Source: a virus. From it: 64,000 bases of DNA. The notes below the pieces were generated by a model. The model saw only the letters and a program-made list of their open reading frames with translations. It made no database searches and was not told the DNA's origin. The first letter of the stretch is position 1. Every line of letters starts with the position of its first letter. The position numbers and the translations under genes are program-made. This document shows positions 2,473 through 51,534 of this stretch, piece after piece. Where the stretch lies: positions 4,768 through 68,767 of IMG/VR virus record IMGVR_UViG_3300031787_011232; one strand, given 5' to 3'.

Positions 2473-2501
2473 GTAGAGTTATATTTAATAGATATTATAT
2501 A

Positions 2502-2530
2502 GGAACAAAAGGAATATATTTCTATATAAT
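2502..2530 (+). promoter_or_regulatory. Class A promoter candidate, GGAAC-N18-TATAAT
   Basis: Variant of the recurrent GAAAC-N17/18-TATAAT motif, upstream of 2548. Confidence 0.45.
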
Positions 2531-2547
2531 AGAATAAAAATTAAAAC

Positions 2548-3249: not shown

Positions 3250-3268
3250 TTAAATAAATAAACAAAAA

Positions 3269-5314: not shown

Positions 5315-5315
5315 T

Positions 5316-6652: not shown

Positions 6653-6689
6653 AAATTATTAATAGAAAAATTCACTAATCTATTTTTAA

Positions 6690-6717
6690 GAAACTTTTTT
6701 TATTTTTTCCGTATAAT
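6690..6717 (+). promoter_or_regulatory. Class A promoter candidate, GAAAC-N17-TATAAT
   Basis: Recurrent motif; -10-like box 4 nt before ATG 6722. Confidence 0.6.
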
Positions 6718-6721
6718 TTTC

Positions 6722-7438
6722 ATGATTAAAAAATCTATATTGAATGTAATTGCAACAGGAAAATATGAAAAATATATTGACGGAATAGTAAATTCTTCGA
6801 TTAAAAATTTTTTAAGAGAAACTGAATTAAAAATAATTGTATATACTGATTCTAAAAAAATACTAAAATCTAATAATAAAAATATAATACCTATTAAAAT
6901 AGATTATGAGTCTTGGCCATATCCTACTTTAAAAAGATTTCATTATTTTGATTTAGCTTTGGAACACATAGAAAAATCCGATTATTCTTTTTATATAGAT
7001 GTTGACAGTTTTTTTAGAAAAAAAATAGATTTAAAAAAACTAGGACTTTTAGATTTTCCTGGAATTGTAGGAACTATTCATCCTGGTTTTTACGGGTCTT
7101 CAGGAACACCTGAGACTAGGAAAGAATCCACCGCTTATATACCAGAAAATTACAGATTTGTTTATCACTGTGGAGGGTTTTTTGGAGGTAATTCACAAAA
7201 TTTTATTCACCTAGCAAAAACTATTAAAAATAATATAGATCAGGATTTATCAAAAAATATTATTGCTATATGGCACGACGAATCTCATTTAAATAGATAT
7301 TTTTTAGATTATCCTCCTATTAAATCTATGGGTAAAGGATTTTCTTCTCCCGAAGAATTTTTAGGACAAGAAAAATACAAGGATCCTTATATAGTTTTTA
7401 TAGATAAATCCGAGGATTTAAAAAATGATAAAAAATGA
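6722..7438 (+). CDS. GT6 family (ABO-type) alpha-1,3-Gal/GalNAc transferase
   Basis: IATGKY, YIDVD, GTIHPGFYG, STAYIP, GGFFGG, AIWHDESHLNRYF. Confidence 0.92.
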   Translation: MIKKSILNVIATGKYEKYIDGIVNSSIKNFLRETELKIIVYTDSKKILKSNNKNIIPIKIDYESWPYPTLKRFHYFDLALEHIEKSDYSFYIDVDSFFRKKIDLKKLGLLDFPGIVGTIHPGFYGSSGTPETRKESTAYIPENYRFVYHCGGFFGGNSQNFIHLAKTIKNNIDQDLSKNIIAIWHDESHLNRYFLDYPPIKSMGKGFSSPEEFLGQEKYKDPYIVFIDKSEDLKNDKK

Positions 7439-8259
7439 TAAATTTAGAAAGTACGACTTTTATTATTCCTATAAAAATAGAACATAAAGATAGGTATAGA
7501 AATTCAGAAATTGTTTTAAATTTTTTGAATTCTAATTTTTACACTAATGTTTTTATATATGAGACTTCTTCTAGTGGAGAAACAAGATTGGATTTTTTAG
7601 AAAATTTAAATAATTTGAATATAAAGCACTGGTGTATTCCAGAAGAAGATTCGTTTCATCGAACAAAATATTTAAACATCATGTTGGACGAAGTCCAAAC
7701 CCCGGTGGTAGTAAATTATGACATTGATGTAATATTGGATCCCCAAAATTTTCTAGAATGCCAAAATGAAATATTAGAAGGAAAATCTAAGGTAATATAC
7801 CCTTACGAGAATGGAAACGGGCAGATTATGATTTTAGAATCTTTCGATTATAATGGGTTTAAAAATTCAAATTATTCAATGGATTTTATAAATTCTTCCC
7901 CTGAAAGGAGAGAACATAGCGCAGAATGTGGCCATTGTATATTTTTCGATACCCATACTTATAGATTATGGGGAGGGGAAAACGAAGATTTTATATCTTA
8001 TGGCCCAGAAGATAAAGAAAGAATGTACAGATTCCAAAAATTAACAAATTCTGTATCCTGGAGACAAGGGAAAAAGGTTTATCACTTCGAACACTATAGG
8101 GGAAATGATAGCTGGATAAGTAATCCCCATTTTAGAAACAACTGGAAAATTTTTGAAGATATACAAAGAATGGATATTCTTTCTCTTATAAACCATTACA
8201 GGGACACGAGTTATTCTAATAAATATAAAACCCTCTGTAAGAAAGAACAAGTTCAATGA
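7435..8259 (+). CDS. GT7-like / GT2 galactosyltransferase-type glycosyltransferase
   Basis: FHRTKYLN, NYDID, WGGENEDFISYGPEDKE, YHFEH. Confidence 0.7.
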   Translation: MINLESTTFIIPIKIEHKDRYRNSEIVLNFLNSNFYTNVFIYETSSSGETRLDFLENLNNLNIKHWCIPEEDSFHRTKYLNIMLDEVQTPVVVNYDIDVILDPQNFLECQNEILEGKSKVIYPYENGNGQIMILESFDYNGFKNSNYSMDFINSSPERREHSAECGHCIFFDTHTYRLWGGENEDFISYGPEDKERMYRFQKLTNSVSWRQGKKVYHFEHYRGNDSWISNPHFRNNWKIFEDIQRMDILSLINHYRDTSYSNKYKTLCKKEQVQ

Positions 8260-14211: not shown

Positions 14212-15396
14212 ATGGCAAAATCTCAAGCTACACAATCAAGTAAACCTTTTTCATTTTTAGATTTAGATAAAGAGTTATCTAAAATAGAAGGATTTGAGTT
14301 GGGATCTATACTATCTAACAACACGTTCAGTGAAGTTGATGAGTGGATTCCTACCGGTAATTACCTTCTTAACGGTCAGTTATCAGGAACACTTTTTGGT
14401 GGGATCCCTAATACAAGATCTCTTGGTCTTATGGGGGATCCAGGAACAGGTAAATCTTTCGTGTGTCTTAATGTCGTTAGAGAAGCTCAAAAGAAAGGAT
14501 ATGATGTGGTTTATTGCGATACAGAAGGAGCTATAGATAAATCTTCAGCTCTTAAATTTGGTATAGATGCAAATAAAATAAGATATCAACCTATTAAAAC
14601 GGTTTCCCAATTCCAGACTTTTGTTGCGAATCTTGTAGATATGGTAAATAAAGCAAGATCGAAAGGAGAATCTCCTAAAATACTTTTAATTTTGGATTCT
14701 ATTGGAATGCTTTCTACGGATAAAGAGATTGCAGATGCTATTAGAGGACATAATGCAGCAGATATGGGTGCTAAAGCTAAGGAGCTAAGAAAGCTATTCA
14801 GAGTTATTACCCTTGATCTTACCGCTGCTAAGATTCCTTTAATTTGTACCAATCACGTTTATACCGGAGGAGGATTTATGCCAACCAAAGAAAGCTCCGG
14901 CGGGGATGGTCCTATATTCTCTATGTCAGTAATTTCTTTCCTTTCCAAAGCTCAGCTAAAAGAAGGGTCTAGCACAACAAGAACCGGTATAGTTGTGACG
15001 TCTAATCTTAAAAAAAGTCGTTTTACTGTACCAGAGCCCGTTAAATTCCATATATCATTTGCAAACGGTATGAATCCTTACGTGGGGCTTCAGGATTACG
15101 TTTCTTGGGACGTTTGCGGAATAGAGAGAGGTAAATTAGAAGAAGTTAAAAATTCAGAAGGTAAAAAAGAACTTAAATTTACAGCTAATGCTTCTTCTAC
15201 TAGATGGGCGGTAAGACATTTAGGAAAAACTGTTACAACTTCTGAATTATTTACTTCTAAAGTTTTTACCCCGGAAGTTCTAATAGATCTAGACGAAAAA
15301 GTAATTCAGAAGAAATTCAAATTGCCAGAGCTTACGGATTATAGCGATATGATAGATTCTGTTGATTCTGATTTTGAAGAAAGCGGGGATGAATAG
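14212..15396 (+). CDS. uvsX: RecA-like recombinase UvsX
   Basis: LSGTLFGG, Walker A GDPGTGKS, DTE, ILDSIGML, TNHVY, KKSRF. Confidence 0.9.
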   Translation: MAKSQATQSSKPFSFLDLDKELSKIEGFELGSILSNNTFSEVDEWIPTGNYLLNGQLSGTLFGGIPNTRSLGLMGDPGTGKSFVCLNVVREAQKKGYDVVYCDTEGAIDKSSALKFGIDANKIRYQPIKTVSQFQTFVANLVDMVNKARSKGESPKILLILDSIGMLSTDKEIADAIRGHNAADMGAKAKELRKLFRVITLDLTAAKIPLICTNHVYTGGGFMPTKESSGGDGPIFSMSVISFLSKAQLKEGSSTTRTGIVVTSNLKKSRFTVPEPVKFHISFANGMNPYVGLQDYVSWDVCGIERGKLEEVKNSEGKKELKFTANASSTRWAVRHLGKTVTTSELFTSKVFTPEVLIDLDEKVIQKKFKLPELTDYSDMIDSVDSDFEESGDE

Positions 15397-21936: not shown

Positions 21937-24324
21937 ATGGCTTTTAGAGTACAGATAAGAAGAGATACCGCTTTAAATTGGACAACTAACGATCCTATTC
22001 TTTTAGATGGAGAATTTGGATACGAAACAGATACCGGAAGGTATAAAATAGGAAATGGAATAGACACTTGGAGCGATCTAATTTACTCTTTAGTCGGTAT
22101 AACAGGAGCAACAGGTTCTCAAGGACCAACAGGATCTACAGGACCAACAGGTTCTCAAGGGCCAACAGGATCTACAGGACCAACAGGTTCTCAAGGCCCA
22201 ACAGGATCTACAGGACCAACTGGAGCAGATTCTAATGTTCCTGGTCCTACTGGACCTACTGGACCCCAGGGATTTATAGGATTACAAGGTCCAACGGGTT
22301 CCCAAGGAATACAAGGCCCAACGGGGAATACGGGCCCTCAAGGATATGGATCCGGTAAATTGTATTATTTTAATACCTCAATTTCAGGATCTTTACCTAT
22401 TCCATCAGGGACTTATTATCAAATTTCTCCCAATCAATCCGGATCCGGTTTAACCTCCGCAAGCCAAACTATAGCTAGTGGTGCTACCGGGTATATTTCT
22501 AATTATATAACGGATTTAAATGATCCGGGTATATCCGTTCTTCCGGGAGGAAGAATCTCGTTTTATCTACACCTAGATTCTTTTAATGGAGGAAATTTTG
22601 ATATAAATACCGATATATTTATATGGGACGGAATTACAGAAACATATTTTGGAAGTTCTGATGTAATTTCAGTATTTTTGCCGAATTCTTCTATCGGGAA
22701 TCCTTTAATGGTAAATAGTGATCTAATAGCTCCTACTACTTCTCTTAATCTAAATGATAGATTTGTAGTAAAAATAGTTGCAAAAAATAATAATTTATCA
22801 ACCGATACTGTATATTTTTACAGCGAAGGATCACAAGAATATAGTTACGTAATTACCCCCATTTCTCCTTCCGGAGGGCCAATTGGGCCAACTGGACCGA
22901 TAGGTCCAACTGGAAATATAGGACCAACTGGACCGATAGGTCCAACTGGAAATATAGGACCAACTGGGGATATAGGACCAACTGGGGATATAGGACCAAC
23001 TGGGGATATAGGACCAACTGGGGATATAGGACCAACGGGTCCTATAGGGTTAACCGGAGATATAGGATCAACCGGTCCAACCGGAAATACAGGTCCAATT
23101 GGTCCAGCCGGTCCAACCGGTCCAATTGGTGCGACTGGTTTTGGCGGGGCTCAAGGAAGTTATGCTTATTTATATTCTGATACGACACAAATTAATGGGG
23201 GGACTTCTTCTTCAAATCTAGTAAATTACGATTCTATGTCTTCTTCTCCGGATATATCTTATATCGGAGGATCTATTATATTTGATACTTCTGGAATTTA
23301 TAGTTTTCAAATTTCTGCACAAGCTCTTAAGGGATCTTCAGGATCCCAAAGTATAAATTTCTGGTTATCCCAAAATTCTGTAGAAGTTCCTAATTCTAGA
23401 CTAATACAAAGCATGTCTAGTACTACTTCTAATGGAATATACAATAGGGAATATCTTGTAAACGTATCCTCGGGAGACATATTGGAGGTTTATTGGAGTT
23501 CTACGGATCCTTTAATGTCTTTAATATATAATCCTTCTACGGTATCTCCTTCCAGACCAGAACAACCTTCTTTTTCTTTAACTATACATCAAGTTCTCTA
23601 TACCCAGCTTGGACCTACTGGACCTACTGGTCCCTCAGGAGGACCTATTGGCCCTACTGGCCCTACGGGAATAACAGGAATTCAAGGAGATTTAGGGCCT
23701 ACTGGTCCTACGGGTAATATCGGGGATCCTGGTCCTACTGGTCCTACTGGTCCCCCAGGAGGACCTATTGGACCTACTGGACCTACTGGTCCTACGGGAA
23801 TTCAAGGAGATTTAGGACCTACTGGTCCTACGGGTAATATCGGAGATCCTGGTCCTACTGGTCCTACTGGACCTTCAGTTGCATATTCTTCAGGAAATAA
23901 GATAATACAAAATTGGACTTTTTTCAACGGGACTCAAAATACAACAGGAGCTACAACTTTTCAATCTCTTCAAAGATTTATAATGGATTTAGGAAATACG
24001 GCTAAATGGAATCCCACAAATTGTTCCCTTCCTGTCATAACAGTAAGTTTTTTAGGATGGATATCTTCCGCAGCAGGAGGAGCAGTTGCAGAATTTGAAC
24101 TATATAATAACGATACTTCTACCTCTATTTCAGGTTCCCAGGTTACCACTTCTGCAGCATCCGAAGGATCCGCTGTAGTTGTTACCTCAGGCCCTCTAAA
24201 CCAATCGGATTTTCCTAACCTTACAACTTCACAGGTACAAGTTAGATTCAGGAGAAATGGGGGAAGTGGAGGAACTGTAAATATAAAATCAATACTAATC
24301 CAAGCGGAATGGACAGTAAATTAA
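21937..24324 (+). CDS. Collagen-like fibre protein with Mtd_N-like anchor, three G-P-T collagen tracts and a C1q/BclA-like domain
   Basis: [36 protein letters not shown]; (G-X-Y)n tracts; [11 protein letters not shown]-containing globular domain. Confidence 0.85.
22111..22218 (+). repeat. 36-nt coding tandem repeat x3 ([12 protein letters not shown])
   Basis: ACAGGTTCTCAAGGnCCAACAGGATCTACAGGACCA at 22111, 22147, 22183. Confidence 0.9.
22957..23028 (+). repeat. 18-nt coding tandem repeat x4 (GPTGDI)
   Basis: GGACCAACTGGGGATATA four exact copies. Confidence 0.9.
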
Positions 24325-30359: not shown

Positions 30360-33300
30360 ATGGCAAGTAAAATTAAAATAGACTACTCTCAGTTTAGAGC
30401 TTCTGGAGTTTATACATTGGAGTTTGACGCTTCCCAAAACGTTATACTAACCTCTCAAACGATCCGTTTGGTCGTAGGATTCTCTAACGTAGGACCTTTT
30501 AATACCCCGGTATATATACCGGATGCTACAACAATGATAGCTATATTTGGAGATATAGATAGATCTTTAGAAAATAAAGGATCTTTCTTCCACAGATCGG
30601 TTTTCACTTGTTTATCTCAAGGTCCTGTTTTTGCGTTAAATCTTCTTAATTTAAATAACGATGAATCTAGCGCATCCCCGGATGTAGTTACCTACAAATC
30701 GTTTTCTTTAGATACTGAGCAGTACAACGGGGAAATTACGGAAAGACTTTATTCTTCTTATTATAACAAAGAAAGATTTTGGTTTCCAGATCCTGAGTAT
30801 TTCTTAGCTACTCTTAGCGTAGCAGATCAAGGTAAACTTTTTAACCTAACAAATCTGGGAAAAAGCCCAATGAGTGTAATCGTTAGAAAATCTACCGATT
30901 CAGTCAATCCTCTTTTAGGATTTAATATTTTTGCTATAGATTGGTACGGAGCAAATAACGTTCCTTCTTTTATGCACCCTTACGATTACATATCTGATTA
31001 TTTTATTGATGTAATAGCTGTTTCGGGTGATTGGACCGATTATCAGGCTCTATCCGTAGATCCTAAATGGAGTTCTTTCTTTACCAATAATGGATTCGTA
31101 AAAAGTCAAATAGATAATTTCTTGTCTAACCAAGATGTGAATATAGTAACTTCTGTTACCGGATGTATAATTCCGGATTTCGTAGATCTTAACGGTAATA
31201 ATCAATACATTCAAACTTTAGTAAATCAAAATACTCCTTCTACAGGTTTATTCTGTGCTATAGATGAACAAGCTTTTGATGATATCTGTAATAGTACTTA
31301 TAAAATAGATCTAGTAGGAAACCATTTAATAGATGAACTTTCTGGAGATAGAGATCTTGCAAGTCCTAGGATAAAATTCTTAAGCTATGATCAACTTTTG
31401 ATAGCAGACTATCTTTACACCCAAAATGTTGTGGGTGTTACTGGTTCAGCTGCTTTTCCTCCTATTTCTCCGGCAGGAGCAACTGTTTTCACAACAGGTA
31501 CTAAAGTAGGTACTTTATTCTCTTTAACCCCAGGAATTACTGGATCTACTTCGGGAATTATTTATCAATCTTTTGCGGCATACGATCCTAATGCTACAGA
31601 CGGGGGATACCACTATTTACAAACTTCGGGAACTACAGGAGCTACGGGAGGAATTTCTTCAGCTTCCCAGAAAGCAGAATTAAGTAATTTCTTAAGTGTC
31701 ACTTCTTCTAACGATCAAAAATTTATTTTAGGGGTAGTTCAGGGAATTTCTGGATTGAATAATCCTACTACCAACCAATTTAATGAAGGAGATTTAGTTA
31801 AACTTAAAGTCGTAGAAACTAAATTTGTTAGTTCGGAATTAAGAATTAAATTTTTCCATCCTTTAGATACCGCAGCATTTAAATCATTAGGGGTTTCGGT
31901 TAATCCTACTTTTAATTTAACATCTTATAATACGGGAGCTTCTGGAAGTAACAGACCTTTCTATACCGATTCATATCAATTTGGTAATTCTGATTATTTA
32001 GATATAGTAAGTATAAGTACTCCTAATGGGGTAACTGGGCCAAATGCTCCTTTAGGGGTTTCTAATTCTTTGGTGGGCTATAACGCTTCAGATCTTTATC
32101 AGGATAATAAATTTTCTGAGATAGTAGACGGAGATTATATTTGGCTAAATCCTACCGGTTCTTCTATACAGTATTTAGGTTTTCAACAAACTAAAGACAA
32201 AGACGATTTCAATCTTGTTTACACTAGAGCATTTACAAATGTTTCTAGAAATAACACTACTATTACTAACATAGCAACTTTCGGAGGAGGTATAAATCCA
32301 TCTTATGCTTCAGATAATTCGGGATTACCAGTAGCAGATCAGAAGATTGATTTGATCTCACAAGCAGGGGGAATATCCGAATATGTGGATATATTAGCTC
32401 AGGTGAGTCCTACCACATTTACTGTTCAGGAGATTAATGGAAATGTTCCTTTCTCTGTAGGAGATTTGATCGTATCTACCGATTTAGATATATGCACTCC
32501 TTCTACTGGAAATAGACAGTATAGACTTGCTAAAATTACTACGGTAGCTGCTACGACAACTTCCGGAATATACACCGTTATTTGTGCGAGACCGATCTAT
32601 TATTACCCAGGAATCGGTACGGAAAGAGTTCAGAAATTTAAATCTATTCCTGAATTTACTGTTTCTTTTGATTTTACATACCTTTCAGGATTTACGATGA
32701 AAGAATCTCATCGACCAAATGGAACAGATGCTAGAATTTCTGAAATTTTAGATGTTATGTATGACACTAATATAGCTAAAACCTTAGCAGCTAAAGATAT
32801 AATTAGCTTTAGATACGTTGTAGATACGTTCTCCGGACAAATCTTACCTAACTCTAAATACCAATTAAGTAAATTGGCTAAGAATAGACAACAAGCTATG
32901 GCTTTAATAAATGCACCTTCTATAGCTCAATTCAGAAATAGCACGGATCCTAGATTTACAGATGCTCCTACGGCGGTAAATCCTTTCCCTGCTCTTAAAA
33001 CTAAATATATAGCAGACGGAGGAAATTTATCTTTAAATCCTTCTTATACATTTAGTTTACCTACCGAAGATGATGGATCTAAATTCTGTGGATTCTTCTC
33101 TCCTTATATTACAGTAAGAGAGTCTAATAGAAATATAAGTGTCCCACCTGCAGCTTTCGTTTCTAATAATTACGTTAGAAAATTTGCATCCGGCGAACCT
33201 TATTCTATAGTTGCAGGACAAAAGAGAGGAGTCCTTTCGGGAGCTTCTATAGTAGGAGTAGAATATGATTTTACCGATGAGGATAGAGGAAATTTAGAGC

Positions 33301-33728
33301 CCTTCGGAATAAATCCTATAATAAAAAGAACAGGGGTGGGTGTTGTTATATTCGGTAACCAAACCGCATATCAAACCGTAAATTCTGCATTTAATTTACT
33401 TCATGTAAGAGATTTATTAATTTCGGTAGAAACTGATGTTCAGACTATCCTTTCTAACTATCTATTTGATTTTAATGAAGATTCAATCCGATTAGAGATT
33501 AAAACATTAGTAGATAACTATTTAGATGGGGTTCAATCCGGAGGAGGGATTTATGCTTATCAAACTATTATGGATACTTCTAACAATACACCAGAAATCA
33601 TAGATATGAATATGGGTATTATAGATATTATTATAGAACCAGCTAGAGGAATACAGAAATTTATAAACAGAATTACTGTTACTAGAACTGGGGGTATTGC
33701 TTCTGGAGGATTTACTCAATTTGTTTAA
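30360..33728 (+). CDS. gp18: Contractile tail sheath protein (1122 aa, large insertions)
   Basis: SGVYTLEFD, GPFNTPV, VPPAAFV, AGQKRG, GINPI, FGNQT, HVRDLL, FDFNE, MDTSNNTPEIID. Confidence 0.93.
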   Translation: MASKIKIDYSQFRASGVYTLEFDASQNVILTSQTIRLVVGFSNVGPFNTPVYIPDATTMIAIFGDIDRSLENKGSFFHRSVFTCLSQGPVFALNLLNLNNDESSASPDVVTYKSFSLDTEQYNGEITERLYSSYYNKERFWFPDPEYFLATLSVADQGKLFNLTNLGKSPMSVIVRKSTDSVNPLLGFNIFAIDWYGANNVPSFMHPYDYISDYFIDVIAVSGDWTDYQALSVDPKWSSFFTNNGFVKSQIDNFLSNQDVNIVTSVTGCIIPDFVDLNGNNQYIQTLVNQNTPSTGLFCAIDEQAFDDICNSTYKIDLVGNHLIDELSGDRDLASPRIKFLSYDQLLIADYLYTQNVVGVTGSAAFPPISPAGATVFTTGTKVGTLFSLTPGITGSTSGIIYQSFAAYDPNATDGGYHYLQTSGTTGATGGISSASQKAELSNFLSVTSSNDQKFILGVVQGISGLNNPTTNQFNEGDLVKLKVVETKFVSSELRIKFFHPLDTAAFKSLGVSVNPTFNLTSYNTGASGSNRPFYTDSYQFGNSDYLDIVSISTPNGVTGPNAPLGVSNSLVGYNASDLYQDNKFSEIVDGDYIWLNPTGSSIQYLGFQQTKDKDDFNLVYTRAFTNVSRNNTTITNIATFGGGINPSYASDNSGLPVADQKIDLISQAGGISEYVDILAQVSPTTFTVQEINGNVPFSVGDLIVSTDLDICTPSTGNRQYRLAKITTVAATTTSGIYTVICARPIYYYPGIGTERVQKFKSIPEFTVSFDFTYLSGFTMKESHRPNGTDARISEILDVMYDTNIAKTLAAKDIISFRYVVDTFSGQILPNSKYQLSKLAKNRQQAMALINAPSIAQFRNSTDPRFTDAPTAVNPFPALKTKYIADGGNLSLNPSYTFSLPTEDDGSKFCGFFSPYITVRESNRNISVPPAAFVSNNYVRKFASGEPYSIVAGQKRGVLSGASIVGVEYDFTDEDRGNLEPFGINPIIKRTGVGVVIFGNQTAYQTVNSAFNLLHVRDLLISVETDVQTILSNYLFDFNEDSIRLEIKTLVDNYLDGVQSGGGIYAYQTIMDTSNNTPEIIDMNMGIIDIIIEPARGIQKFINRITVTRTGGIASGGFTQFV

Positions 33729-33782: not shown

Positions 33783-34337
33783 ATGGCAGGATTACCACAT
33801 TTTTCTAACTCCCAGGCTTCTTTAAATAAATATGAGCCGGTATATCTTAACCAGTTTGAGGCACAAATAACTTGTCCCCCGGGGGTAGGAGGAGGAAATC
33901 TTCTTATAGAGCACGTAACAAAAGTTAGTGGTTTAGCTGTAGATAAAAGCCCAGGATTAGCTACTCAAAAATATAAATTCGCAAAAAGGAATTATGCTGG
34001 AGCTAAACCTTCAGAAACTACTATGAACGTTAGTATTTCATTTACGGTCAACCTAAACGATGCTAACTCTATGTATATCTTTAAAACCCTTAGACAATGG
34101 TCAGATTTGATCTACAATCCTTTAACAGGAGCTATGGGGCTTAAAAAAGACTATACAGGAAATATTTTAATATCTATCTTTAATAAACAAGGAGATGTTT
34201 ATAGAAGAATTAATTGTAGAGATGTTTTTCCTTTAAAAGCTCTTCCTGAAATGGGATTGAATTACACTGACGAAACGATATACACAGTTAATGATATGGA
34301 ATTTGCTGTTGATTATTGGGATGATTTATTTTTATAA
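33783..34337 (+). CDS. gp19: Tail tube protein, paralog 1
   Basis: Follows sheath; RNYAG, LRQWSDLIYNPLTG, KKDY, VFP, DYW. Confidence 0.8.
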   Translation: MAGLPHFSNSQASLNKYEPVYLNQFEAQITCPPGVGGGNLLIEHVTKVSGLAVDKSPGLATQKYKFAKRNYAGAKPSETTMNVSISFTVNLNDANSMYIFKTLRQWSDLIYNPLTGAMGLKKDYTGNILISIFNKQGDVYRRINCRDVFPLKALPEMGLNYTDETIYTVNDMEFAVDYWDDLFL

Positions 34338-34349
34338 TTTTTAATTAAT

Positions 34350-34928
34350 ATGGCCGGACTTCCACATTTTAGTAATTCTACTGCTTCTAGGCTTAACTAT
34401 GAACCTGTTTATCTTAACCAATTTGAGGTTATAATAAATCCTCCTGCAGGAATACCTCTTGCTGCTCAAAGATTCAAAGGAGAAGGAATTTTAGCTCAAG
34501 GAGTAAAAAGTATTTCAGGGTTAGCTGTTGATATTGCTCCTTCTGCAACTATAGATCAAAATTATAAATTTGCTACCAGAAGATATGCTGGGGGAGAACC
34601 TTCAACCACGGATATGACAGTATCTATGGAGTTTGAGGTTAATTTAAATCCTGAAAGTAATTCCATGGAAGTTTATAAAATTCTTAGACAATGGTCAGAT
34701 TTAATCTATAATCCACTTACTGGAGCTATGGGACTTAAAAAAGATTATGTGGGATCTATGGTTATATCAATATTCAATAAAAGAGGAGACGTATTTAGAA
34801 GAGTTTCTATACCTTCGTGTTTTCCTTCTGAAGCTATTCCTGCAATGGATTTAGATTATGAGCAAGCAAACAATTATAGTATATCCCTTTCATGGATATG
34901 CGATTACTGGACAGACACATTTTTATAA
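34350..34928 (+). CDS. Tail tube protein, paralog 2
   Basis: Aligns end-to-end with paralog 1. Confidence 0.75.
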   Translation: MAGLPHFSNSTASRLNYEPVYLNQFEVIINPPAGIPLAAQRFKGEGILAQGVKSISGLAVDIAPSATIDQNYKFATRRYAGGEPSTTDMTVSMEFEVNLNPESNSMEVYKILRQWSDLIYNPLTGAMGLKKDYVGSMVISIFNKRGDVFRRVSIPSCFPSEAIPAMDLDYEQANNYSISLSWICDYWTDTFL

Positions 34929-43362: not shown

Positions 43363-45531
43363 ATGGATTTCGTAAATCAAATTAAAAAATTAAAAGATCT
43401 AACAAAATCTCCTAAAGTTAGAGAATTGTGCGAGAGCTATCTAAATGGAGGAATGAAATTGGATCCAGAATCTTTTTTTAATCAAATCAATGAAGAAGAT
43501 TCTAATTTTTCTGATAATATAAAAGAGCATGTAGATGCTATTAAAAACGAACAAGCAGAGATATCTAGAAGATCTGCTCAGCAGCTAATGGAACACTGGG
43601 AAGGAGTTAAAAATTTATCTTTAGATAATAGTGGAACTTTCCTTAACAATAAACCTAGCAATTCTTTAAATGAATCATTAGTTGAAAAATTAGAAGATTT
43701 ATCATTGGTTGACGGTAGCGTTAAATCTTTCAGAGAAGCTCAAAAATTAAATAACCTTGGAATTTTAGAATCTTTAGAATTTTTAAAAAGTAAAGCTGTA
43801 TATTCATATCCTCAAACCAAAATAATATGTGAGCAATTTAGAAATTTGGTACAGGACAGGGGAATTAAAGAATTTTTATTGGCAGAATCCTACTTGAATG
43901 AGCTTTCTAAAATAGGATGGGATTCTGATGTAAAAGATGTCATAGAAACAATATCGGAAAAAACAAAAAGATATTCTAGAGAGATTGAAGTTTCTAAAGT
44001 ATTAGAAAATTTAAGAAACGGGGGTAGTAGAAATTTCTATTCGGATTTGATAGACGATTTAGATTCTTGGTTAGTTACTGAAAATAAATCAACAGATCTT
44101 TTATTGAAAAAAATAAAAAGATGGGAATTTAACCCGGTGATTAGAAATTTATCAAATTCTATAAAAATTAATGAATCTAGAAATAGCGGTTATTTAAATT
44201 TACCTAGAGTTAGCCAAGGAGAATCTAGAGTAGAATCTTTATTTGCCCCGGTATTAATCGAAGAGGGAAGAACAGTATTTCCTTTAGGGGGAGATTTATT
44301 TTCTGGTGGATATACCGGATTTAATAGACTTAGCGAATCGGAAATTAAAAAAACAGTTCCTAGTTCTTATTTGAATCTACTTTCTATTTGTTCTAAACCT
44401 AATATTAGAATAGATGAAAATGGAGCTTATATTGCTATTGGAAAAAATACTATAAAAATAGTAGAAGAAGGAACTAAAAATTCTGTTTATCTAGGAAAAA
44501 GTAAATTAAATTTTAGAAATAGTGTGGATCTTGCAAAAATAGTAGGATTAGAAGTTACTTCGAATCTAGGAATGATGGAAAGTACTTTAGTCAACGATGT
44601 AGTTACTATCTATGAAAATTATGATAGCATCGTAGAACTGGATTTTGCAAAATCTATAATTTCTAATATCTATGAAGGAGTTTCTATAAACTTAATAAAA
44701 TGGGAAAACCAAATTTACCTTCAGAAGGTAAATGAATCTATGAGAGAAAAATCCCTATATAAAGTAAATGGATCTCAAGCAGTTAAAGCGGTTAAGGATT
44801 ATTTAAGATATGATATATCGGAAGGTCTTACAGAATTTTTAGAAGGAGATTATAAGAGAAAATCTATTATGATAAATGACAGAAATGAAATTCTAAATAA
44901 CATTACCATAATAGAATCTGAGATAGAAAAGATAGAAAGATTTTTTGAGAGCAAACCTGAATTAAAAGAAAGCCAAGAACTAAAATCAGCTCATTACAGT
45001 TTATCTAAAGAATTATCAGTACTTAGAGAAAAATGGAACCATTTAAATATCGAAATAGAAAGAGTAGAAGACAATCTCGTTGAAATTGATGATGATATTT
45101 TCGAAGATGAAAAATTTAAAATAGGAGATTTTGTTAAAGTCAAAGAATCAGGAGAAACTGGAAAAGTTCTATCTGTAGACGGAAGTTCTGGTAGATATAC
45201 AGTTTTATTGGATAGCGGAAAAACTTCAGATTACACGGTAGGAGAAATATCAGATTTAGAAGAAGCTTTAAATAAAGCAGCAGAGGAAAATGAGGAAGAA
45301 TCAGATGAGGACGGAGAAGAAGGAATTAAGGAAGCAAGAAAAATAAGCAAATCTGAATTGAATAAACAAAGAGGGTATTTAGGAAAATTTAAAGATTCTC
45401 ATGGATTCTCCGTAGCTCCTGGAAAAAAAGAAAAGATAGGATTTGAACTTAAGAATTCAACTTTAGACATAGATCATAATCACGGATACAATACAACTCT
45501 TAACGAAGAAGAGTTACTAAAAAAAAAGTAG
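43363..45531 (+). CDS. Large late protein, probable prohead core/internal protein with KOW/SH3-like motif
   Basis: Many I/L-x-E sites (INE, LNE, ILE); FKIGDFVKVKESGETGKV; ends in A9 run. Confidence 0.6.
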   Translation: MDFVNQIKKLKDLTKSPKVRELCESYLNGGMKLDPESFFNQINEEDSNFSDNIKEHVDAIKNEQAEISRRSAQQLMEHWEGVKNLSLDNSGTFLNNKPSNSLNESLVEKLEDLSLVDGSVKSFREAQKLNNLGILESLEFLKSKAVYSYPQTKIICEQFRNLVQDRGIKEFLLAESYLNELSKIGWDSDVKDVIETISEKTKRYSREIEVSKVLENLRNGGSRNFYSDLIDDLDSWLVTENKSTDLLLKKIKRWEFNPVIRNLSNSIKINESRNSGYLNLPRVSQGESRVESLFAPVLIEEGRTVFPLGGDLFSGGYTGFNRLSESEIKKTVPSSYLNLLSICSKPNIRIDENGAYIAIGKNTIKIVEEGTKNSVYLGKSKLNFRNSVDLAKIVGLEVTSNLGMMESTLVNDVVTIYENYDSIVELDFAKSIISNIYEGVSINLIKWENQIYLQKVNESMREKSLYKVNGSQAVKAVKDYLRYDISEGLTEFLEGDYKRKSIMINDRNEILNNITIIESEIEKIERFFESKPELKESQELKSAHYSLSKELSVLREKWNHLNIEIERVEDNLVEIDDDIFEDEKFKIGDFVKVKESGETGKVLSVDGSSGRYTVLLDSGKTSDYTVGEISDLEEALNKAAEENEEESDEDGEEGIKEARKISKSELNKQRGYLGKFKDSHGFSVAPGKKEKIGFELKNSTLDIDHNHGYNTTLNEEELLKKK

Positions 45532-45765: not shown

Positions 45766-46125
45766 ATGGCTAAAATATACGTAAAAAACAAAGACCTACT
45801 AGCGGCATTTAAAGATTCTAAAGAAAAAGGAAGTCTTAATCCGGAAATAGTGGGAATGTTTTATCTTATAATAGATGGAATATCTAAAAAAATGTCTTAT
45901 AAAGATCCATCGGATAAAGAAGATTGCATGGCTTTTGCGATGGAAGATCTTTGTAAATATTGGGATAGATTCAATCCCGATAAATCGGACAATGCATTTT
46001 CTTATTTTACCCAGATAGCAAAAAATGGATTTGCAAAAGGATGGAAAAAAATACACCCTCCAAAAAATCCAAAAACTATACCATTTAGTTATATCACGGG
46101 GGAAGATAATACATATAATGTATAA
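45766..46125 (+). CDS. gp55: Late-transcription sigma factor, minimal gp55-like
   Basis: YVKNKDLL, FNPDKSDNAFSYFTQIAKNGF. Confidence 0.85.
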   Translation: MAKIYVKNKDLLAAFKDSKEKGSLNPEIVGMFYLIIDGISKKMSYKDPSDKEDCMAFAMEDLCKYWDRFNPDKSDNAFSYFTQIAKNGFAKGWKKIHPPKNPKTIPFSYITGEDNTYNV

Positions 46126-46154: not shown

Positions 46155-46640
46155 ATGACGGATATAAAAAAAGTAAAACCCAACGGAGAATACAAATCTG
46201 GTAAATTTGTACCAAAAAATCCAGATAAATACATAGGAGATATACATAATATCATATTTAGATCGTCGTGGGAGCAAAGATTTTGTATTTACTGTGATAC
46301 CAATGAATCTATAATAAAATGGAGCTCCGAGCCTCTAAAGATCCCGTACTACAATCCATTAGATAAAAAAGAACACGAGTATAATGTGGATTTCTATATG
46401 AAAACTTTAAAGAATGACGGGGAAGAACAGGAATGGATAATAGAAATAAAACCGGAAAAACAAACCCAAAAACCGGTTTATGAGGGGAATATGACAACAG
46501 CTAAACTTAAAGCCTACAATAGAAATATGCAGATATGGATAACTAACCAATCCAAATTTAAAGCTGCAAAATTATGGGCAGAACAAAGAGGGTTTAGGTT
46601 TGGAGTCATTAATGAAAATTTTTTATTTAAGGGTAAATGA
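46155..46640 (+). CDS. gp4: Head completion nuclease (TnsA-N-like)
   Basis: GKFVPKNPDKYIGD, FRSSWE, WSSE, YNVDF, EIKP, NQSKFKAA. Confidence 0.9.
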   Translation: MTDIKKVKPNGEYKSGKFVPKNPDKYIGDIHNIIFRSSWEQRFCIYCDTNESIIKWSSEPLKIPYYNPLDKKEHEYNVDFYMKTLKNDGEEQEWIIEIKPEKQTQKPVYEGNMTTAKLKAYNRNMQIWITNQSKFKAAKLWAEQRGFRFGVINENFLFKGK

Positions 46641-47233
46641 AAAACTTCGAAGAATTATTAAAAGAATATTCTTACGAATATAAAAGCCAAGAAGGCAGAA
46701 TAAAGGAATCTAATAATTTTTTTTCTAAGAATTATTTAGAAAATTCTAAATATTCTTCCTTTTCTCTTCCTTTTGTTCCTGGGATTATTTATTCTTTTCA
46801 ATATAAAACCCCGGCCAAGATATCCGAAAAAAGAAAATTTATAAATAGAAATCCTATTTTTTTATTTTTAAACTACACTAAAAGCCAAGAATACGGGAAC
46901 ATTTTACACGGAATAGATCTTTCTACTTCTCCTTACGAGGCTAGAGAAGTTATTTTATCTAGAATCTGGAATTTATTTAAGGAGAAAATATCCAAAAATA
47001 GTAATCCTAAAGAAAAAAAAGAAGCTCTTCCTTTATCTCCTGAAAATTTAGATTCTATTTTAAATAAAACCGGATATAGAAAATCTATTTTTGGATTTAA
47101 ATATGAATATTTTTACAACACAAAAGAGATAAAATCCGAGGATTGGGTGAGAATTCCCTTTTTAGAACTAAATACGTTCGAGGGCCTGAGTTCTTTTGAG
47201 ATATATAAAGAATATAAATCGAAATTAAAATAA
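46637..47233 (+). CDS. DNA end protector, gp2-like
   Basis: PGIIYSFQY, NRNPIF, GIDL, EDW; synteny with gp4. Confidence 0.55.
   Translation: MKNFEELLKEYSYEYKSQEGRIKESNNFFSKNYLENSKYSSFSLPFVPGIIYSFQYKTPAKISEKRKFINRNPIFLFLNYTKSQEYGNILHGIDLSTSPYEAREVILSRIWNLFKEKISKNSNPKEKKEALPLSPENLDSILNKTGYRKSIFGFKYEYFYNTKEIKSEDWVRIPFLELNTFEGLSSFEIYKEYKSKLK
47200..47207 (+). promoter_or_regulatory. Late promoter candidate GATATATA (in 3' end of gp2-like gene)
   Basis: 55 nt upstream of portal 1. Confidence 0.55.
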
Positions 47234-47262
47234 AAAAATAGGTATAATACCTAATATCAATT

Positions 47263-48885
47263 ATGGCAGGATTCGTAGAAAATAATAAACCTTCAAGCCC
47301 GGGAGCTATAGATCGGATAAGACAATCCGTAAAAAATCTAAGCACCTTTGGTATGAAGTACGAAGATATGGTCATAAGAAATTCTCAAGCAGTAGGGGTG
47401 ACTGAGGCCAGCTTTTTAAACAAAGACGGACACGCAGGAAAAGAAGATGAAAATTTATCGTGGGCTTTAGCAAAACAAGACGTAACTACAAAACAGTATA
47501 TTACCTATTTCGATAAGGATTATAAAGGAAAAAGAGATTACTTAAGAAAATTTTCTCTAAACCCCGAGATAGAATGGGTTTTAGATACTATCTGCGACGA
47601 ATCAATCTCTTACGACCCTGCAAATTATTTTGCTTATCCTTCTTTCTTAGATCTTACCGACATAAATGAAAAATTTAAGAATGATCTTTATGATTCATAT
47701 AAAAAATTATATGATATATGGGGATTTTCCGATGATATAACCGCTTGGCAATATTTTAGGCAGTTTTTAGTAGATGGATTTTTATCTTTCGAAATAATAT
47801 TTGACGATGATGGGAAAAATATAATAGGATTTAAAGAATTAGATCCGGTTACTCTTGTTCCTAGTGTAGAAAAACAGCCAGATGGAAGTTTTTTAAGTAC
47901 TTGGACCCAATATCCTCAGGACCCTAAAAAAAGAAGAATTCTATACGAACCCCAGATAATATACATCTCTTATGCTAAGGGGAATGCTATTTCTAGAATA
48001 AGTTACGTAGAAAGATTGATAAGACCTTTTAATATTCTAAGAACAATAGAATACACCAGAGTTATATGGTCGGTTATGAATTCTCAATTTAGAATGAAAA
48101 TGACAGTTCCGGTTGGAACTAAATCGATGCAGAAAGGTATGCAAACTCTAGGAGAATTAATGAGTATTTATAAGGAGGATTTTGATTTAAATGATCAGAC
48201 CGGGGAATTAATGATAGACGGTAAACCTAAAATACAGTTTTATAAGAATTATTTAATGCCTTCGGGACAAGGAGGAACCCCTACTATAGAGCCAATAAGT
48301 AACGAAGGGCCAAATTTAAATGATTCTTCTCCTTTAAATTATTTTTTCGATAGATTTATACAGGAAAGTAAGATTCCCCCATCTAGATTTTCTACTCCCG
48401 AGGGCGGAAGCTCGGCCGCTTACTCGAACGTCGCGGAAGGTTTCGATAAAGACGAGATAAGATTTTTTAAATTTATAGAAAGACTAAGAACAGTTTTTCA
48501 AGATATCATGATAAAACCTCTTTGGGTTCAAATGGTTAAAAAACACAAAGAGTTAGAAAAAGATTTCGTATTTAAATCCCAATTGGGTTTAGATTTTTTT
48601 TCGGACAATCCGTTTAAGCTAAATCAGGAGATAGATGTTATAAACAAAAGAAAAGAATCCGTAACTGCTATGATTGGATTAATGGGAGACGACGAAAAAC
48701 CATATTTTTCCGTTCCCTTTCTAATAGAAAATTTCTTAGGAGTAGATAAAAAAGATCTAAAAGTAAACGAAGAAGTAAAAGAAAGAAAGAAAAAAGAAAA
48801 AGAAAAAGAAGGTAAAAAAGAGGGGGAAGAAGGAGCTGCAGAAGGAGCTGAAGGAGGAGGAGAAACCCCGGCGGTAACAATATAA
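47263..48885 (+). CDS. gp20: Portal protein, paralog 1
   Basis: PEIEWVLDTICDESI, FRQFLVDG, ELDP, SYVERLIRPFNILR, KIPPSRF, DEIRFFKFIERLR. Confidence 0.88.
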   Translation: MAGFVENNKPSSPGAIDRIRQSVKNLSTFGMKYEDMVIRNSQAVGVTEASFLNKDGHAGKEDENLSWALAKQDVTTKQYITYFDKDYKGKRDYLRKFSLNPEIEWVLDTICDESISYDPANYFAYPSFLDLTDINEKFKNDLYDSYKKLYDIWGFSDDITAWQYFRQFLVDGFLSFEIIFDDDGKNIIGFKELDPVTLVPSVEKQPDGSFLSTWTQYPQDPKKRRILYEPQIIYISYAKGNAISRISYVERLIRPFNILRTIEYTRVIWSVMNSQFRMKMTVPVGTKSMQKGMQTLGELMSIYKEDFDLNDQTGELMIDGKPKIQFYKNYLMPSGQGGTPTIEPISNEGPNLNDSSPLNYFFDRFIQESKIPPSRFSTPEGGSSAAYSNVAEGFDKDEIRFFKFIERLRTVFQDIMIKPLWVQMVKKHKELEKDFVFKSQLGLDFFSDNPFKLNQEIDVINKRKESVTAMIGLMGDDEKPYFSVPFLIENFLGVDKKDLKVNEEVKERKKKEKEKEGKKEGEEGAAEGAEGGGETPAVTI

Positions 48886-48887
48886 AA
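48823..48887 (+). repeat. Direct repeat copy 1 (portal 1 3' end)
   Basis: GGGGAAGAAGGAGCTGCAGAAGGAGCTGAAGGAGGA(GGA)GAAACCCCGGCGGTAACAATATAAAA. Confidence 0.92.
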
Positions 48888-48892
48888 AAGAA

Positions 48893-50512
48893 ATGGCAGG
48901 ATTTTTAGATCATCAACAACCAAATACATCAGCTTTCGGTAATATTATAAGAAATCTGGGAAAGATATCTAGTTTCGGGATGAAATATGACGATATGGTT
49001 GTTAGAAATTCTCAAGCTATCGGTAAAACTGAAAGTTCTTTTTTTAATTCCGAAGGGACTGGATTCACCCAAGATGATGCTTTTAAATGGATACTTTCAC
49101 ATCAAGATGTAAAGATAAGAAAATATATTGCTTATTTTGATAGAGATTATATAGAAAAAAGAAAATTTCTTAGAAAATTTTCTCTTAACGGGGAAATAGA
49201 ATTTATATTAGATACTGTTTGCGATGAATCTATAACATATGACGATAGAAATTTCTTTGCTACCGCTTCTACTTTAAATATAGATTTAAAGGATAAAATA
49301 TTAGAAAAAATAACAGATCACTATAATAGGCTTTATAATGTATTTGGATTTCAACAATCTAATTTAGCCTGGCAGTATTTTAGACAACTTTTGATAGATG
49401 GATTTTTAGCTTTCGAAATCATTTATGATAACAAAGGGAAAGAAATTATAGGATTTAAAGAATTAGATCCTACGTCATTACAACCGGTTGTCGAAAAAAT
49501 AGGGGAAAAAGATTATCAGCAATTCTGGATACAGTACCCTGCAAATCCACAGATGTCCAGAAAACTTACTAACGAACAAATAGTTTACATATCATATGCA
49601 AAAGGAAATTCTGTTTCTAGAGTTAGTTATGCAGAAAGATTAATAAGATCTTATAACATTCTTAAAATAATGGAAAACACCAGAATTATTTGGAATGTTA
49701 TGAATGCTTCATATAGACTTAAATTCGTAATTCCTACGGGAACTCAATCTCAACAAAAAGCTTTACAGACTCTAGGGCAAATTATGTCGAATTACAAAGA
49801 AGATATATCCATAAATGACAATTCTGGGGAATTAACGATAAACGGTAGACCCAAAGTTCAATTTTATAAAAATTACCTTTTTCCAGAAAAAGATGGTCAA
49901 ACCCCCGATATATCTTCCTTAAATCCTAGTGGTCCTGATTTTAATATAATGGACAACGTTCTCTATTTCTTTAATAAATTAAAGATGGATTCGAAGATCC
50001 CTTATGCTAGATTTTCTTCCCGGTCTTCAGCTCCTATAAACTATCAGACTGGAGTAGATCAGATGCAAAGAGACGAAATAAGATTTGAAAAATTCTTAAG
50101 AAGACTTAGATCTATTTTTCAAGAAATATTAGTTAAGCCTCTTTACATCCAGATGTGTTTAGATCATCCCGAACTGGCAAAAGATAGGAATTTTAAAAGT
50201 AAATTAGGGTTAAACTATCACAGAGAAAGTGAATTGGAAGAAATGATACAAATGGGGGGATTCACTAAAAGAATAGAATTTGTTAACGGATTATCCGAGA
50301 TAAAAATGAAAATAGGAGAAACCGAAACTCCTTATTTCGATAAAGAATTTCTCATTAATAGATTTTTGGGAATTACTCCGGATCAAGCTAAAATGAATGA
50401 AGACTATAAGAAAAAAGAGGAGAAAGAAGCTAAAAAAGCGGAGAAAAAAGGAGGGGAAGAAGGAGCTGCAGAAGGAGCTGAAGGAGGAGAAACCCCGGCG
50501 GTAACAATATAA
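48893..50512 (+). CDS. gp20: Portal protein, paralog 2
   Basis: GEIEFILDTVCDESI, FRQLLIDG, ELDP, KIPYARF, RDEIRFEKFLRRLR. Confidence 0.88.
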   Translation: MAGFLDHQQPNTSAFGNIIRNLGKISSFGMKYDDMVVRNSQAIGKTESSFFNSEGTGFTQDDAFKWILSHQDVKIRKYIAYFDRDYIEKRKFLRKFSLNGEIEFILDTVCDESITYDDRNFFATASTLNIDLKDKILEKITDHYNRLYNVFGFQQSNLAWQYFRQLLIDGFLAFEIIYDNKGKEIIGFKELDPTSLQPVVEKIGEKDYQQFWIQYPANPQMSRKLTNEQIVYISYAKGNSVSRVSYAERLIRSYNILKIMENTRIIWNVMNASYRLKFVIPTGTQSQQKALQTLGQIMSNYKEDISINDNSGELTINGRPKVQFYKNYLFPEKDGQTPDISSLNPSGPDFNIMDNVLYFFNKLKMDSKIPYARFSSRSSAPINYQTGVDQMQRDEIRFEKFLRRLRSIFQEILVKPLYIQMCLDHPELAKDRNFKSKLGLNYHRESELEEMIQMGGFTKRIEFVNGLSEIKMKIGETETPYFDKEFLINRFLGITPDQAKMNEDYKKKEEKEAKKAEKKGGEEGAAEGAEGGETPAVTI

Positions 50513-50514
50513 AA
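50453..50514 (+). repeat. Direct repeat copy 2 (portal 2 3' end)
   Basis: Identical to 48823-48887 except one GGA codon. Confidence 0.92.
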
Positions 50515-50537: not shown

Positions 50538-50565
50538 AAATAGGGAAACTTTCCCTATTTTTTTT
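50538..50565 (+). terminator. Intrinsic terminator overlapping a class A promoter
   Basis: AAATAGGGAA-ACT-TTCCCTATTT plus T-run. Confidence 0.8.
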
Positions 50566-50589: not shown

Positions 50590-51534
50590 ATGATACAAGA
50601 ACTATTAACGGAAAAACTAAGACCAAGAGAACTAAAACATATGATCCTCCCTCAGAGAATTAATAAAATTTTTCTAAATGGATTAGGACACAATGTACTT
50701 TTATCTGGCTCCCCCGGATGCGGAAAAACTACATTAGCTAAAATACTTGCGTCTTCTTTTCCCCATCTATTTATAAACGTTTCCGATGAAAGTTCAGTAG
50801 ATACTATTAGAAATAAGATAAACGATTTCTGTTCTAGCGTATCTGTTATGGATGGAAAATCTTCTAAGAAGATAGTGGTGCTTGACGAGTTTGACGGAGC
50901 ATCAGATCAATTCTATAAAGCATTAAGAGGAACGATAGAAAAATTTGCGGCTAACACTAGATTTATAGCGACTTGCAACTACATAAATAAAATTCCAGAA
51001 GCTATTCAGAGTAGATTCGAAGTTATAGATTTTAACCCTATAGATAGTTCAGAAGAGAATTCTTTAAAAGAAGAATGGAAAAGCAGAATAAGAATAATAC
51101 TTAATAAGATAGGAATTTCTATAGACGACGAATCATTAGAAACTTTTCAAAAAAATTATTATCCAGATTTTAGATCTGCTCTTAACAGAATACAGACCTG
51201 GATGATAGAAGGGGTAAAAGAAGTGGATTCCCAAAAAATAAAAGAGTTCGGGTGGTCTTATGAGGATCTATATAAAATGATAGTTGATTCTAAAGACCCA
51301 GTAAAAAATTATCAAATTATAGTAGGTGAATATTCCGGAAAAGTAGATGATATAATGTCCGCTTTAGGAAATGAGTTTATAGACTGGATAATAGGAAATA
51401 GACCGGAATTATCTAAAATAATTCCTGGAGTTATAATTCTAGTAGCAAGTCATCAATCACAGAGAATTCAGGTAATAGATCCTATGATTTCTCTTCTTTC
51501 TTTATTTTGTAGCATACAAAAATTAATGGAATGA
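50590..51534 (+). CDS. gp44: Sliding clamp loader AAA+ subunit
   Basis: EKLRP, GSPGCGKTT, VLDEFD, FIATCN, IQSRF, YPDFR. Confidence 0.92.
   Translation: MIQELLTEKLRPRELKHMILPQRINKIFLNGLGHNVLLSGSPGCGKTTLAKILASSFPHLFINVSDESSVDTIRNKINDFCSSVSVMDGKSSKKIVVLDEFDGASDQFYKALRGTIEKFAANTRFIATCNYINKIPEAIQSRFEVIDFNPIDSSEENSLKEEWKSRIRIILNKIGISIDDESLETFQKNYYPDFRSALNRIQTWMIEGVKEVDSQKIKEFGWSYEDLYKMIVDSKDPVKNYQIIVGEYSGKVDDIMSALGNEFIDWIIGNRPELSKIIPGVIILVASHQSQRIQVIDPMISLLSLFCSIQKLME

Follow-up and report, generated by a model that had tools for sequence, protein, structure and literature searches.

Two T4-type portal genes in tandem in a clade of uncultured jumbo phages: a possible mixed portal ring

No machine of tailed phages and herpesviruses is more conserved than the portal. 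Models of how DNA is packaged and ejected turn on the mismatch of its symmetry with that of the capsid (12 vs 5) and of the tail (12 vs 6). To our knowledge portals have always been described as twelve copies of one protein, and we know of no portal in which paralogs build a hetero-oligomeric ring. The portal of T4 is encoded by a single gene, gp20, and is a homo-dodecamer (PMC4493910). The DNA considered here, called the window in the following, comprises 64 kb of a 68.8 kb viral contig from IMG/VR (IMGVR_UViG_3300031787_011232). Since CheckV places the contig at a completeness of about 22%, its source is an uncultured jumbo phage of roughly 300 kb. The window contains two genes for portal proteins of the T4 gp20 type, here named A and B, that directly follow one another on the plus strand (for coordinates see the table below). 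The comparisons reported in the following indicate that both genes have been inherited together throughout a large clade, and they raise the question whether the two proteins could form one ring.

A and B are 49% identical (246/507 residues; E = 4e-180; residues 1-504; BLASTP), and since their final ~20 residues are nearly identical the alignment spans both ends. The Pfam family PF07230 (Portal_T4; cut-off 22.9) matches A at model positions 7-429 of 433 (185.9 bits, E = 1.5e-54) and B at model positions 8-433 of 433 (222.1 bits, E = 1.5e-65), phrog_213 (portal) is matched by both, and a search of the PDB with B as query found the solved structure of T4 gp20, 3JA7 (E = 1.2e-21), as well as 9LU6 and 6UZC (2e-21). 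An earlier note, made by a model from the letters of this DNA alone, had described tandem open reading frames (ORFs) of 540 and 539 amino acids (aa) at 47263-50512 that align end to end, and had taken both for intact portals. The coordinates and both quoted peptides were confirmed, and the near-full-length matches to PF07230 together with phrog_213 bear out the second statement too. To judge from these matches A and B are genuine T4-type portals, in an arrangement of two fixed paralogs that is unlike the canonical single-gene portal. The similarity of the two genes is far above chance; the window holds just two paralog pairs (portal and tail tube) at E ≤ 1e-5 among 61 non-overlapping ORFs. An AlphaFold2 monomer of B, predicted with 31 close orthologs, was a poor model (mean predicted local distance difference test, pLDDT, 45.3; predicted template modelling score, pTM, 0.38), in which the order of the secondary-structure elements is compatible with the clip-stem-wing-crown fold, and nothing beyond.

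The distribution of the pair was followed in phage records and in IMG/VR. A megablast search with the nucleotide sequence of the region found no match among 50,697 phage records. At the protein level the nearest match among these records was the uncultured phage LR756500 (462 kb), which has one portal of 44.6% identity, followed by other huge uncultured phages and by the Lak megaphages (35%). The host is probably a member of the Bacteroidota, to judge only from the nearest cultured phages and from one mis-binned MAG label. A was matched by 1965 phage records, in 1963 of them at one place only; the remaining two are duplicate records of one 735 kb genome, with a 101-aa fragment as the second match. 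In LR756501 (735 kb, one full portal) the minus strand has, at 15166-15351 and well away from the portal gene, a 101-aa open frame that is weakly similar (22.4 bits) to the portal profile in its C-terminal part. At least 1976 relatives are contained in a large protein collection.

A first scan of IMG/VR with B as query yielded 78 loci. An A-type and a B-type gene stand in tandem in 73 of them, both genes being at least 500 aa long in 66 loci and one gene being cut by the contig end in 7. Three of the other five loci stop at the gene, and two (L084 and L085) are single-portal outgroups, 42-46% identical to both A and B. The orthologs found in relatives are 63-96% (A) and 66-96% (B) identical. 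Two further scans, for which the most basal double-portal lineage and the single-portal outgroup served as seeds, added 152 loci: the pair was found in 100 (84 with at least 1700 nucleotides (nt) on both sides), in 3 a B-type gene stands where the contig begins, and 49 are single-portal loci of a sister clade, 30 of them with room on both sides. Deduplication left 76 distinct full-length A/B pairs and 27 distinct single portals of the sister clade. In three complete genomes that have terminal repeats (373, 430 and 434 kb) PF07230 finds the tandem pair and no further gene; the record of the window has two PF07230 genes as well, and like these relatives it departs from the canonical single portal gene. 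No lost, truncated or decayed copy was seen in any locus of the double-portal clade that has room for both. Frequent loss or decay of one paralog in relatives, which according to the earlier note would have told against its interpretation, was thus not found: both copies are intact throughout and under equal purifying selection (see below). By these counts the pair is fixed across a large clade of uncultured phages whose complete genomes measure 319-434 kb.

Two phylogenetic trees were computed by quick searches under the LG+G4 model, without a mixture model. The first has 57 rows, taken from 24 selected loci, 7 singles and the window, and the second comprises 63 rows, adding basal double-portal lineages and 14 sister-clade portals. 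In both trees the A clade (100), the B clade (100) and the two together (99; Shimodaira-Hasegawa-like approximate likelihood ratio test) are nested among single-portal lineages. The stems of the two clades in the 63-row tree are of nearly the same length (A 0.388, B 0.386), and so are the crowns in total (A 3.96, B 3.98), the patristic distances between the same genomes in A and in B being correlated with r = 0.93. An older duplication followed by loss, by which B would group with the sister-clade singles, was rejected by the approximately unbiased (AU) test (difference in log-likelihood 178, p = 7e-38); this was the sole alternative tested. The trees are therefore best described by a single tandem duplication on the stem of the clade, with strict co-inheritance and symmetric divergence since then, and they bring out the ancient retained duplication for which the earlier note had proposed to look. 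The Lak portal (L086, Prevotella phage Lak-A1) was left out of the trees because under translation table 11 it is broken into pieces. The pieces are of 173 and 146 aa, as a non-standard reading of a stop codon would give; Lak genomes are alternatively coded according to the abstract of PMC8346664.

Selection on the two genes was estimated by the method of Nei and Gojobori for 17 genome pairs, the low-complexity tail being excluded. The ratio of nonsynonymous to synonymous rates (omega) was 0.005-0.036 for A (15/17 pairs computable) and 0.004-0.028 for B (14/17), and in the three least saturated pairs it was 0.004-0.014. As far as these estimates go, purifying selection is equally strong on A and B, and neither copy is relaxed.

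The tail tube gene is also present twice, the two copies being separated by a few nucleotides, as in the case of the portal genes (see the table below). The complete 373 kb relative has 469 ORFs of at least 70 aa that form 7 paralog pairs (E ≤ 1e-10, 60% coverage). The tube pair (56% identity) and the portal pair (51%) are the strongest by far, the other pairs being 25-40% identical, and the genes for capsid, sheath and terminase are not duplicated in this genome. One tube gene was found in 7/7 single-portal records and two were found in 7/7 evaluable double-portal records and in the window, an eighth double-portal record being cut at the gene. Since single-portal records have one tube gene and double-portal records have two, the tube and the portal duplications map, on this set of records, to the same branch. 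The parallel to the duplicated tail tube that had been drawn from the window alone is therefore real, and it is stronger than had been stated, since both duplications share a branch. The tube being the other ring-shaped part of the conduit, its duplication on the same branch suggests that the channel as a whole was remodelled in a linked manner. That tube and portal genes were duplicated side by side as one segment was considered and rejected: a distance of ~12 kb lies between them here, and of ~21 kb in a single-copy relative. The second tube protein is more acidic than the first (-5 vs -1 in the window, -8 vs -1 in the complete relative).

Where A and B differ was analyzed with the domain limits of T4 (PMC4493910, section 6), which were transferred with an offset from the alignment of B with the T4 structure. 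The two proteins are 46% identical in the N-terminal region, 55% and 56% in the two parts of the wing, 67% in stem helix alpha5, 52% in the clip, 27% in stem helix alpha7, 27% in the tunnel loop and 30% in the crown. In every domain, A and B are equally conserved inside their clades. It follows from the identities that the wing, which faces the capsid in T4, and the clip, which faces the terminase and the neck, have remained alike and that the parts lining the channel or projecting into the head have diverged. At 45 positions the A and the B clades are fixed for different residues. Nine of these fixed differences are in the clip, where the outgroup state is kept by B at 6 and by A at 1, and nine are in alpha7 and the tunnel loop, where it is kept by A at 5 and by B at 1; the derived residues of A are mostly in the clip, those of B mainly in alpha7 and in the tunnel loop.

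The net charge of the folded body is about -10 in A, as in three outgroups (-10.0), and near neutral in B. A was found to be the more negative protein in 43/44 genome pairs (-10.6 vs -0.4) and in 73/76 distinct pairs (-10.2 vs -1.3, first 500 residues), and the difference is located mainly in the first wing segment, in the clip and in alpha7/tunnel. Judged by the outgroups, A retains the ancestral acidic body and B has lost the acidic character. In the portal of T4, subunits next to each other are bound together largely by salt bridges, and the tunnel loops touch the loops of the neighbours (PMC4493910), which makes the differences in charge and tunnel loop plausible marks of two complementary subunit types.

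The C-termini of both proteins consist of a Lys/Glu-rich stretch, a Gly/Ala/Glu/Pro-rich stretch and a final P-x-V-T-L (or I). The variants of the final motif agree within genomes: PQVTL is found in both copies in one subclade, PAVTL in another and PAVTI in the group of the window. For the last 4-20 residues, the identity of A and B within a genome was exceeded in 0/2000 shuffles (50 distinct genomes of 67), the controls giving 281/2000 and 386/2000 for internal stretches and a borderline 75/2000 for an N-terminal stretch. Because third codon positions differ in most genomes, the match is kept at the protein level, by selection acting there. A tail with this linker and motif was found in no other ORF of the window or of one complete relative.

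At the 3' ends of the two genes in the window the DNA is also identical, over 29 + 31 in-gene bases and 2 bases after the stop, with one 3-nt indel at 48852-48854; outside of this tract the DNA of A and B is 40-78% identical. The pattern marks the tract as a recent short gene-conversion tract that is specific to the lineage of the window. Conversion is thus possible, yet the cores have remained 49% identical clade-wide, which argues that selection maintains the difference between A and B.

The A-rich spacer between the stop codon of A and the ATG of B is 7 nt long in the window, and in relatives the spacer has a length of 1-23 nt (38 distinct junctions), which is too short to house a promoter or a terminator. 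A terminator scan revealed no terminator-like site between A and B in the window. The hairpin after B (see the table below) is also present in the closest relatives, and in many lineages hairpins of other sequence, each with a T-run, follow B; for the region overall the terminator scan was at chance (4 sites vs 3.7 expected). From the 7-nt gap, the lack of a terminator-like site between the genes and the hairpin after B we infer, with good support, that A and B are co-transcribed as one short unit. The co-transcription that had been asserted from the ORFs is consistent with all three features, and it is retained here in this weaker form, the close coupling of the two genes being the firm part. 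The TATAAT box upstream of A is a possible promoter of the pair, which is a visual impression: similar boxes (TAGAAT, TAAAAT, TATAAATA) were seen by eye at a like distance, about 15-25 nt, before A in most relatives, a scan for sigma-70-type promoters was at chance (26 promoter-like sites vs 27 expected), and the T4 late-promoter motif TATAAATA was not enriched in the window (17 matches vs 19.3 expected). A fusion of A and B by read-through or frameshift was rejected, since a stop codon and 1-23 nt separate the genes in all junctions. A metatranscriptomic library contained one 241-nt contig identical to 49934-50174 in B, contigs being unable to show transcription. Just two read runs held a small share (0.06) of the query words, and the second of these is probably DNA, mostly from diverged relatives.

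The most likely reading of the pair, to which we give about an even chance, is that A and B co-assemble into a mixed portal ring of two kinds of subunits, since two paralogs that are made together descend from a ring subunit associating with itself. The portal gene was duplicated in tandem once, on the stem of the clade, and both copies have been kept since then. We propose that A and B would be made together from a single short transcription unit and co-assemble in one mixed ring at the sole portal vertex, where the two could alternate (A6B6). On this view, both kinds of subunit have kept alike the wing, turned to the capsid, and the clip, turned to the terminase and the neck, and they have specialised in the lining of the channel (alpha7, tunnel loop and crown) and in charge, A being acidic like the ancestor and B near neutral. 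The flexible acidic tail of both subunits, ending in P-x-VTL/I, presumably binds a partner in the head that both share. A more far-reaching and more tentative version of the proposal is that the whole conduit is built of paired subunits, with an obligate A6B6 portal of C6 rather than C12 symmetry and a tube of two alternating proteins; just as tentatively, such a portal would present six acidic and six near-neutral subunits with two kinds of tunnel loop. Of the three arrangements that the earlier note had put forward, the hetero-dodecamer best fits the coupling of the two genes, their symmetric divergence, the conserved outer surfaces and the shared tail; co-assembly itself and the ratio 6+6 go beyond what these features show.

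Several points weigh against a mixed ring. The support is indirect throughout, and the clade has no cultured member. Retention, equal constraint, co-expression and the shared tail also fit two separate rings in the head. The terminal VTL has been lost in A only in some lineages (e.g. L034-L042, L079) and in B only in others (L057-L060, L063, L077), so that the shared tail is not strictly needed on both copies. A test across genomes for changes in charge that would compensate each other between A and B gave a raw r of -0.32 and an r of -0.13 in 34 sister-pair contrasts, of which 4 are of the same sign, 3 are of opposite sign and 27 have one side unchanged, a result that speaks neither for nor against compensation. 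The co-occurrence of the tube and the portal duplications concerns one branch and is a single coincidence rather than a repeated association, and the omega values are rough because the synonymous divergence (dS) is saturated in many pairs. A prediction of the complex of A (18-510) and B (18-510) from alignments of 31 rows, with a score of 0.01 against a mark of 0.32 and its controls not run, is evidence neither for nor against a mixed ring.

Two separate homo-dodecameric rings with different jobs, either a portal plus a stacked or adaptor-like ring or alternative portals in different particles, are unlikely, and they are nevertheless the rival to be taken most seriously. Every portal domain and the same internal tail are kept by both proteins, as a second ring in the head would need them, and the conserved difference in body charge (about -10 vs about -1) could equally mark two assemblies. 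Moreover, the tube is duplicated too, and ring paralogs acting as stack initiators or terminators are known from tail tubes. However, 1-23 nt without a signal separate the genes, so that the two proteins appear together, and co-expressed paralogs of 49% identity that do not mix would require changes at the interface, for which there are no signs. The clip and the wing stay alike, though they should have changed in a ring with a different place, and the divergence is symmetric, unlike the usual pattern in which one copy takes on the new job. For a second type of particle a second gene for capsid, sheath or terminase would be expected, and there is none. Separate vertices for packaging and ejection, or two types of particles, which the earlier note had offered beside the hetero-dodecamer, likewise found no specific support, because capsid, sheath and terminase are single and separate transcriptional regulation of A and B is not apparent.

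Still less probable is that one copy is the structural portal and the other a protein outside of the ring or of the virion, such as an assembly initiator, a chaperone or a decoy against defence. Defence systems that sense portals and tail tubes and thereby trigger abortive infection exist, and the portal and the tail tube are exactly the genes that are duplicated here; B, furthermore, is without the ancestral acidic character. A decoy or chaperone should not need all portal domains at equal constraint, yet the conservation of the domains and omega are equal in A and B, the rates have been symmetric since the duplication and neither copy has been lost in 76 distinct pairs. With respect to a decoy, a second copy does not hide the first from the sensor.

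That the two genes are interchangeable and kept for a higher expression is very improbable. Redundancy is a common start of tandem duplicates, and at the 3' end gene conversion is still active, but the proteins are 49% identical, 45 sites are fixed differently and the copies have stayed distinct clade-wide in spite of possible conversion. Interchangeable copies should sometimes be lost, and none was. As there is one portal ring of 12 subunits per virion in T4 (PMC4493910), dosage is also an unlikely need. An assembly artefact or chimeric contig, conceivable since the window is from a metagenomic contig, is refuted by the 76 distinct pairs, which come from many independent contigs, three of them complete genomes bounded by terminal repeats, and by the trees of A and B, which mirror one another.

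The neighbourhood of the portal pair, with a guanine plus cytosine (GC) content of about 30% in the window, is that of a T4-like phage. The window also encodes a large terminase, the sheath, the two tail tubes, a prohead protease and the major capsid protein, and the order of the genes is T4-like (terminase, sheath, tube, portal, protease, capsid). The features of the pair and the genes flanking it are compiled in the table.

Table 1. Features of the portal and tail-tube pairs and of the surrounding DNA (positions refer to the window)
Feature	Position	Strand	Remarks
Tail tube paralog 1	33783..34337	+	184 aa
Tail tube paralog 2	34350..34928	+	192 aa, 55% identical to paralog 1, 12 nt downstream
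gp55-like late sigma factor	45766-46125	+	Upstream of A (profile matches)
gp4-like head-closure nuclease	46155-46640	+	Upstream of A (profile matches)
gp2-like DNA end protector	46637-47233	+	Upstream of A (profile matches)
TATAAT, -10-like box	47243..47248	+	About 15-20 nt upstream of the ATG of A, by eye
Portal paralog A	47263..48885	+	540 aa, T4 gp20 type (ORF, PF07230, phrog_213)
3' tract of A identical to that of B	48823..48887	+	Encodes the tail ...EEGAAEGAEGGGETPAVTI
A-rich 7-nt spacer	48886..48892	+	From the stop of A to the ATG of B (ORF coordinates)
Portal paralog B	48893..50512	+	539 aa, T4 gp20 type (ORF, PF07230, phrog_213, 3JA7)
3' tract of B matching that of A	50453..50514	+	Encodes the tail ...EEGAAEGAEGGETPAVTI
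Terminator-like hairpin	50538..50560	+	10-bp stem, 3-nt loop, T-run; 26 nt past the stop of B
gp44-like clamp loader	50590..51534	+	Downstream of B (profile matches)

The gp4-like head-closure protein matches the TnsA-like endonuclease N-terminal domain (PF08722, E = 3.7e-18), which agrees with the designation of gp4 as a nuclease in the title of a paper listed among the references of PMC7824862. Just upstream of the late sigma factor, at 43363-45531, a 722-aa protein of no known family is encoded that has a weak SH3-like (MSSS) match under the Pfam cut-off and an acidic C-terminal stretch. The tail sheath (30360-33728) is unusually long (1122 aa), the sheath families matching just its C-terminal third. 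A collagen-like tail-fibre protein of 795 aa (21937-24324) is encoded by the sole GC-rich stretch of the window (GC 0.41 vs about 0.30). The stretch 289-8259 is taken up by some ten ORFs in a row, alike in size (189-282 aa) and with few exceptions on the plus strand; no similarity among them was found at E ≤ 1e-5.

Full-text literature searches for two portal genes in one phage or for a hetero-oligomeric portal found neither, the results being mostly on the medical "portal", and two portal genes are not mentioned in the available parts of PMC4493910, PMC12619734, PMC7824862 and PMC12484599. A clade with two portal and two tail-tube genes is a natural experiment, and the clade is large and widespread. 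If the ring is mixed, the symmetry rules change, and the parts of a portal subunit that are free to specialise (channel loops, charge) come to light; with two rings, the second would be a new component of the virion. An A6B6 portal would lower the symmetry of the channel through which a genome of 320-430 kb is packed and ejected, and among the portals of tailed phages and herpesviruses it would be the first hetero-oligomeric one. Those who annotate huge phages run the risk of collapsing the pair into one "portal".

The closest known counterpart, gp20 of T4 (PF07230; 3JA7, 6UZC, 9LU6), shares with A and B the near-full-length family match and the T4-like gene order. T4 has one gene, whereas here there are two, 49% identical and fixed in the whole clade, and A and B each add an acidic low-complexity tail that ends with P-x-VTL/I. 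The closest relatives in sequence, LR756500 and the IMG/VR sister clade (L084, L085 and relatives), belong to the same portal subfamily and are 41-46% identical to A and B. LR756501 and LR756502 (about 34-37%) and the Lak megaphages of Prevotella (35%) are more distant members of this subfamily. An N-terminal MAGF is common to LR756500, the sister clade, A and B, and LR756501 and LR756502 begin with MASY. The single-portal huge phages whose C-termini were examined (Lak not included) have, like A and B, a tail rich in Gly and acidic residues with a hydrophobic last residue. They differ in having one portal and one tail-tube gene and in the end of the tail, which is another one (e.g. ..VDLGF).

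Two cases of ring or shell paralogs among other phage proteins are comparable. In T4 the major capsid protein gp23 and its vertex paralog gp24 go back to a duplication that led to two specialised subunits of one shell. As in the case of A and B, the duplication is an old one of a building block of the virion and both copies were retained; the difference is that it concerns the capsid lattice there and the portal here. Contractile systems contain paralogs of the tube protein, such as gp48, gp54 and gp3 beside gp19 in T4 and the tube proteins of Afp/PVC, which, like the tube pair of the window, are ring-forming paralogs within one machine. Those paralogs are initiators and terminators that have diverged much further, whereas the two tube proteins described here are 55% identical, are encoded in tandem and arose with the portal pair.

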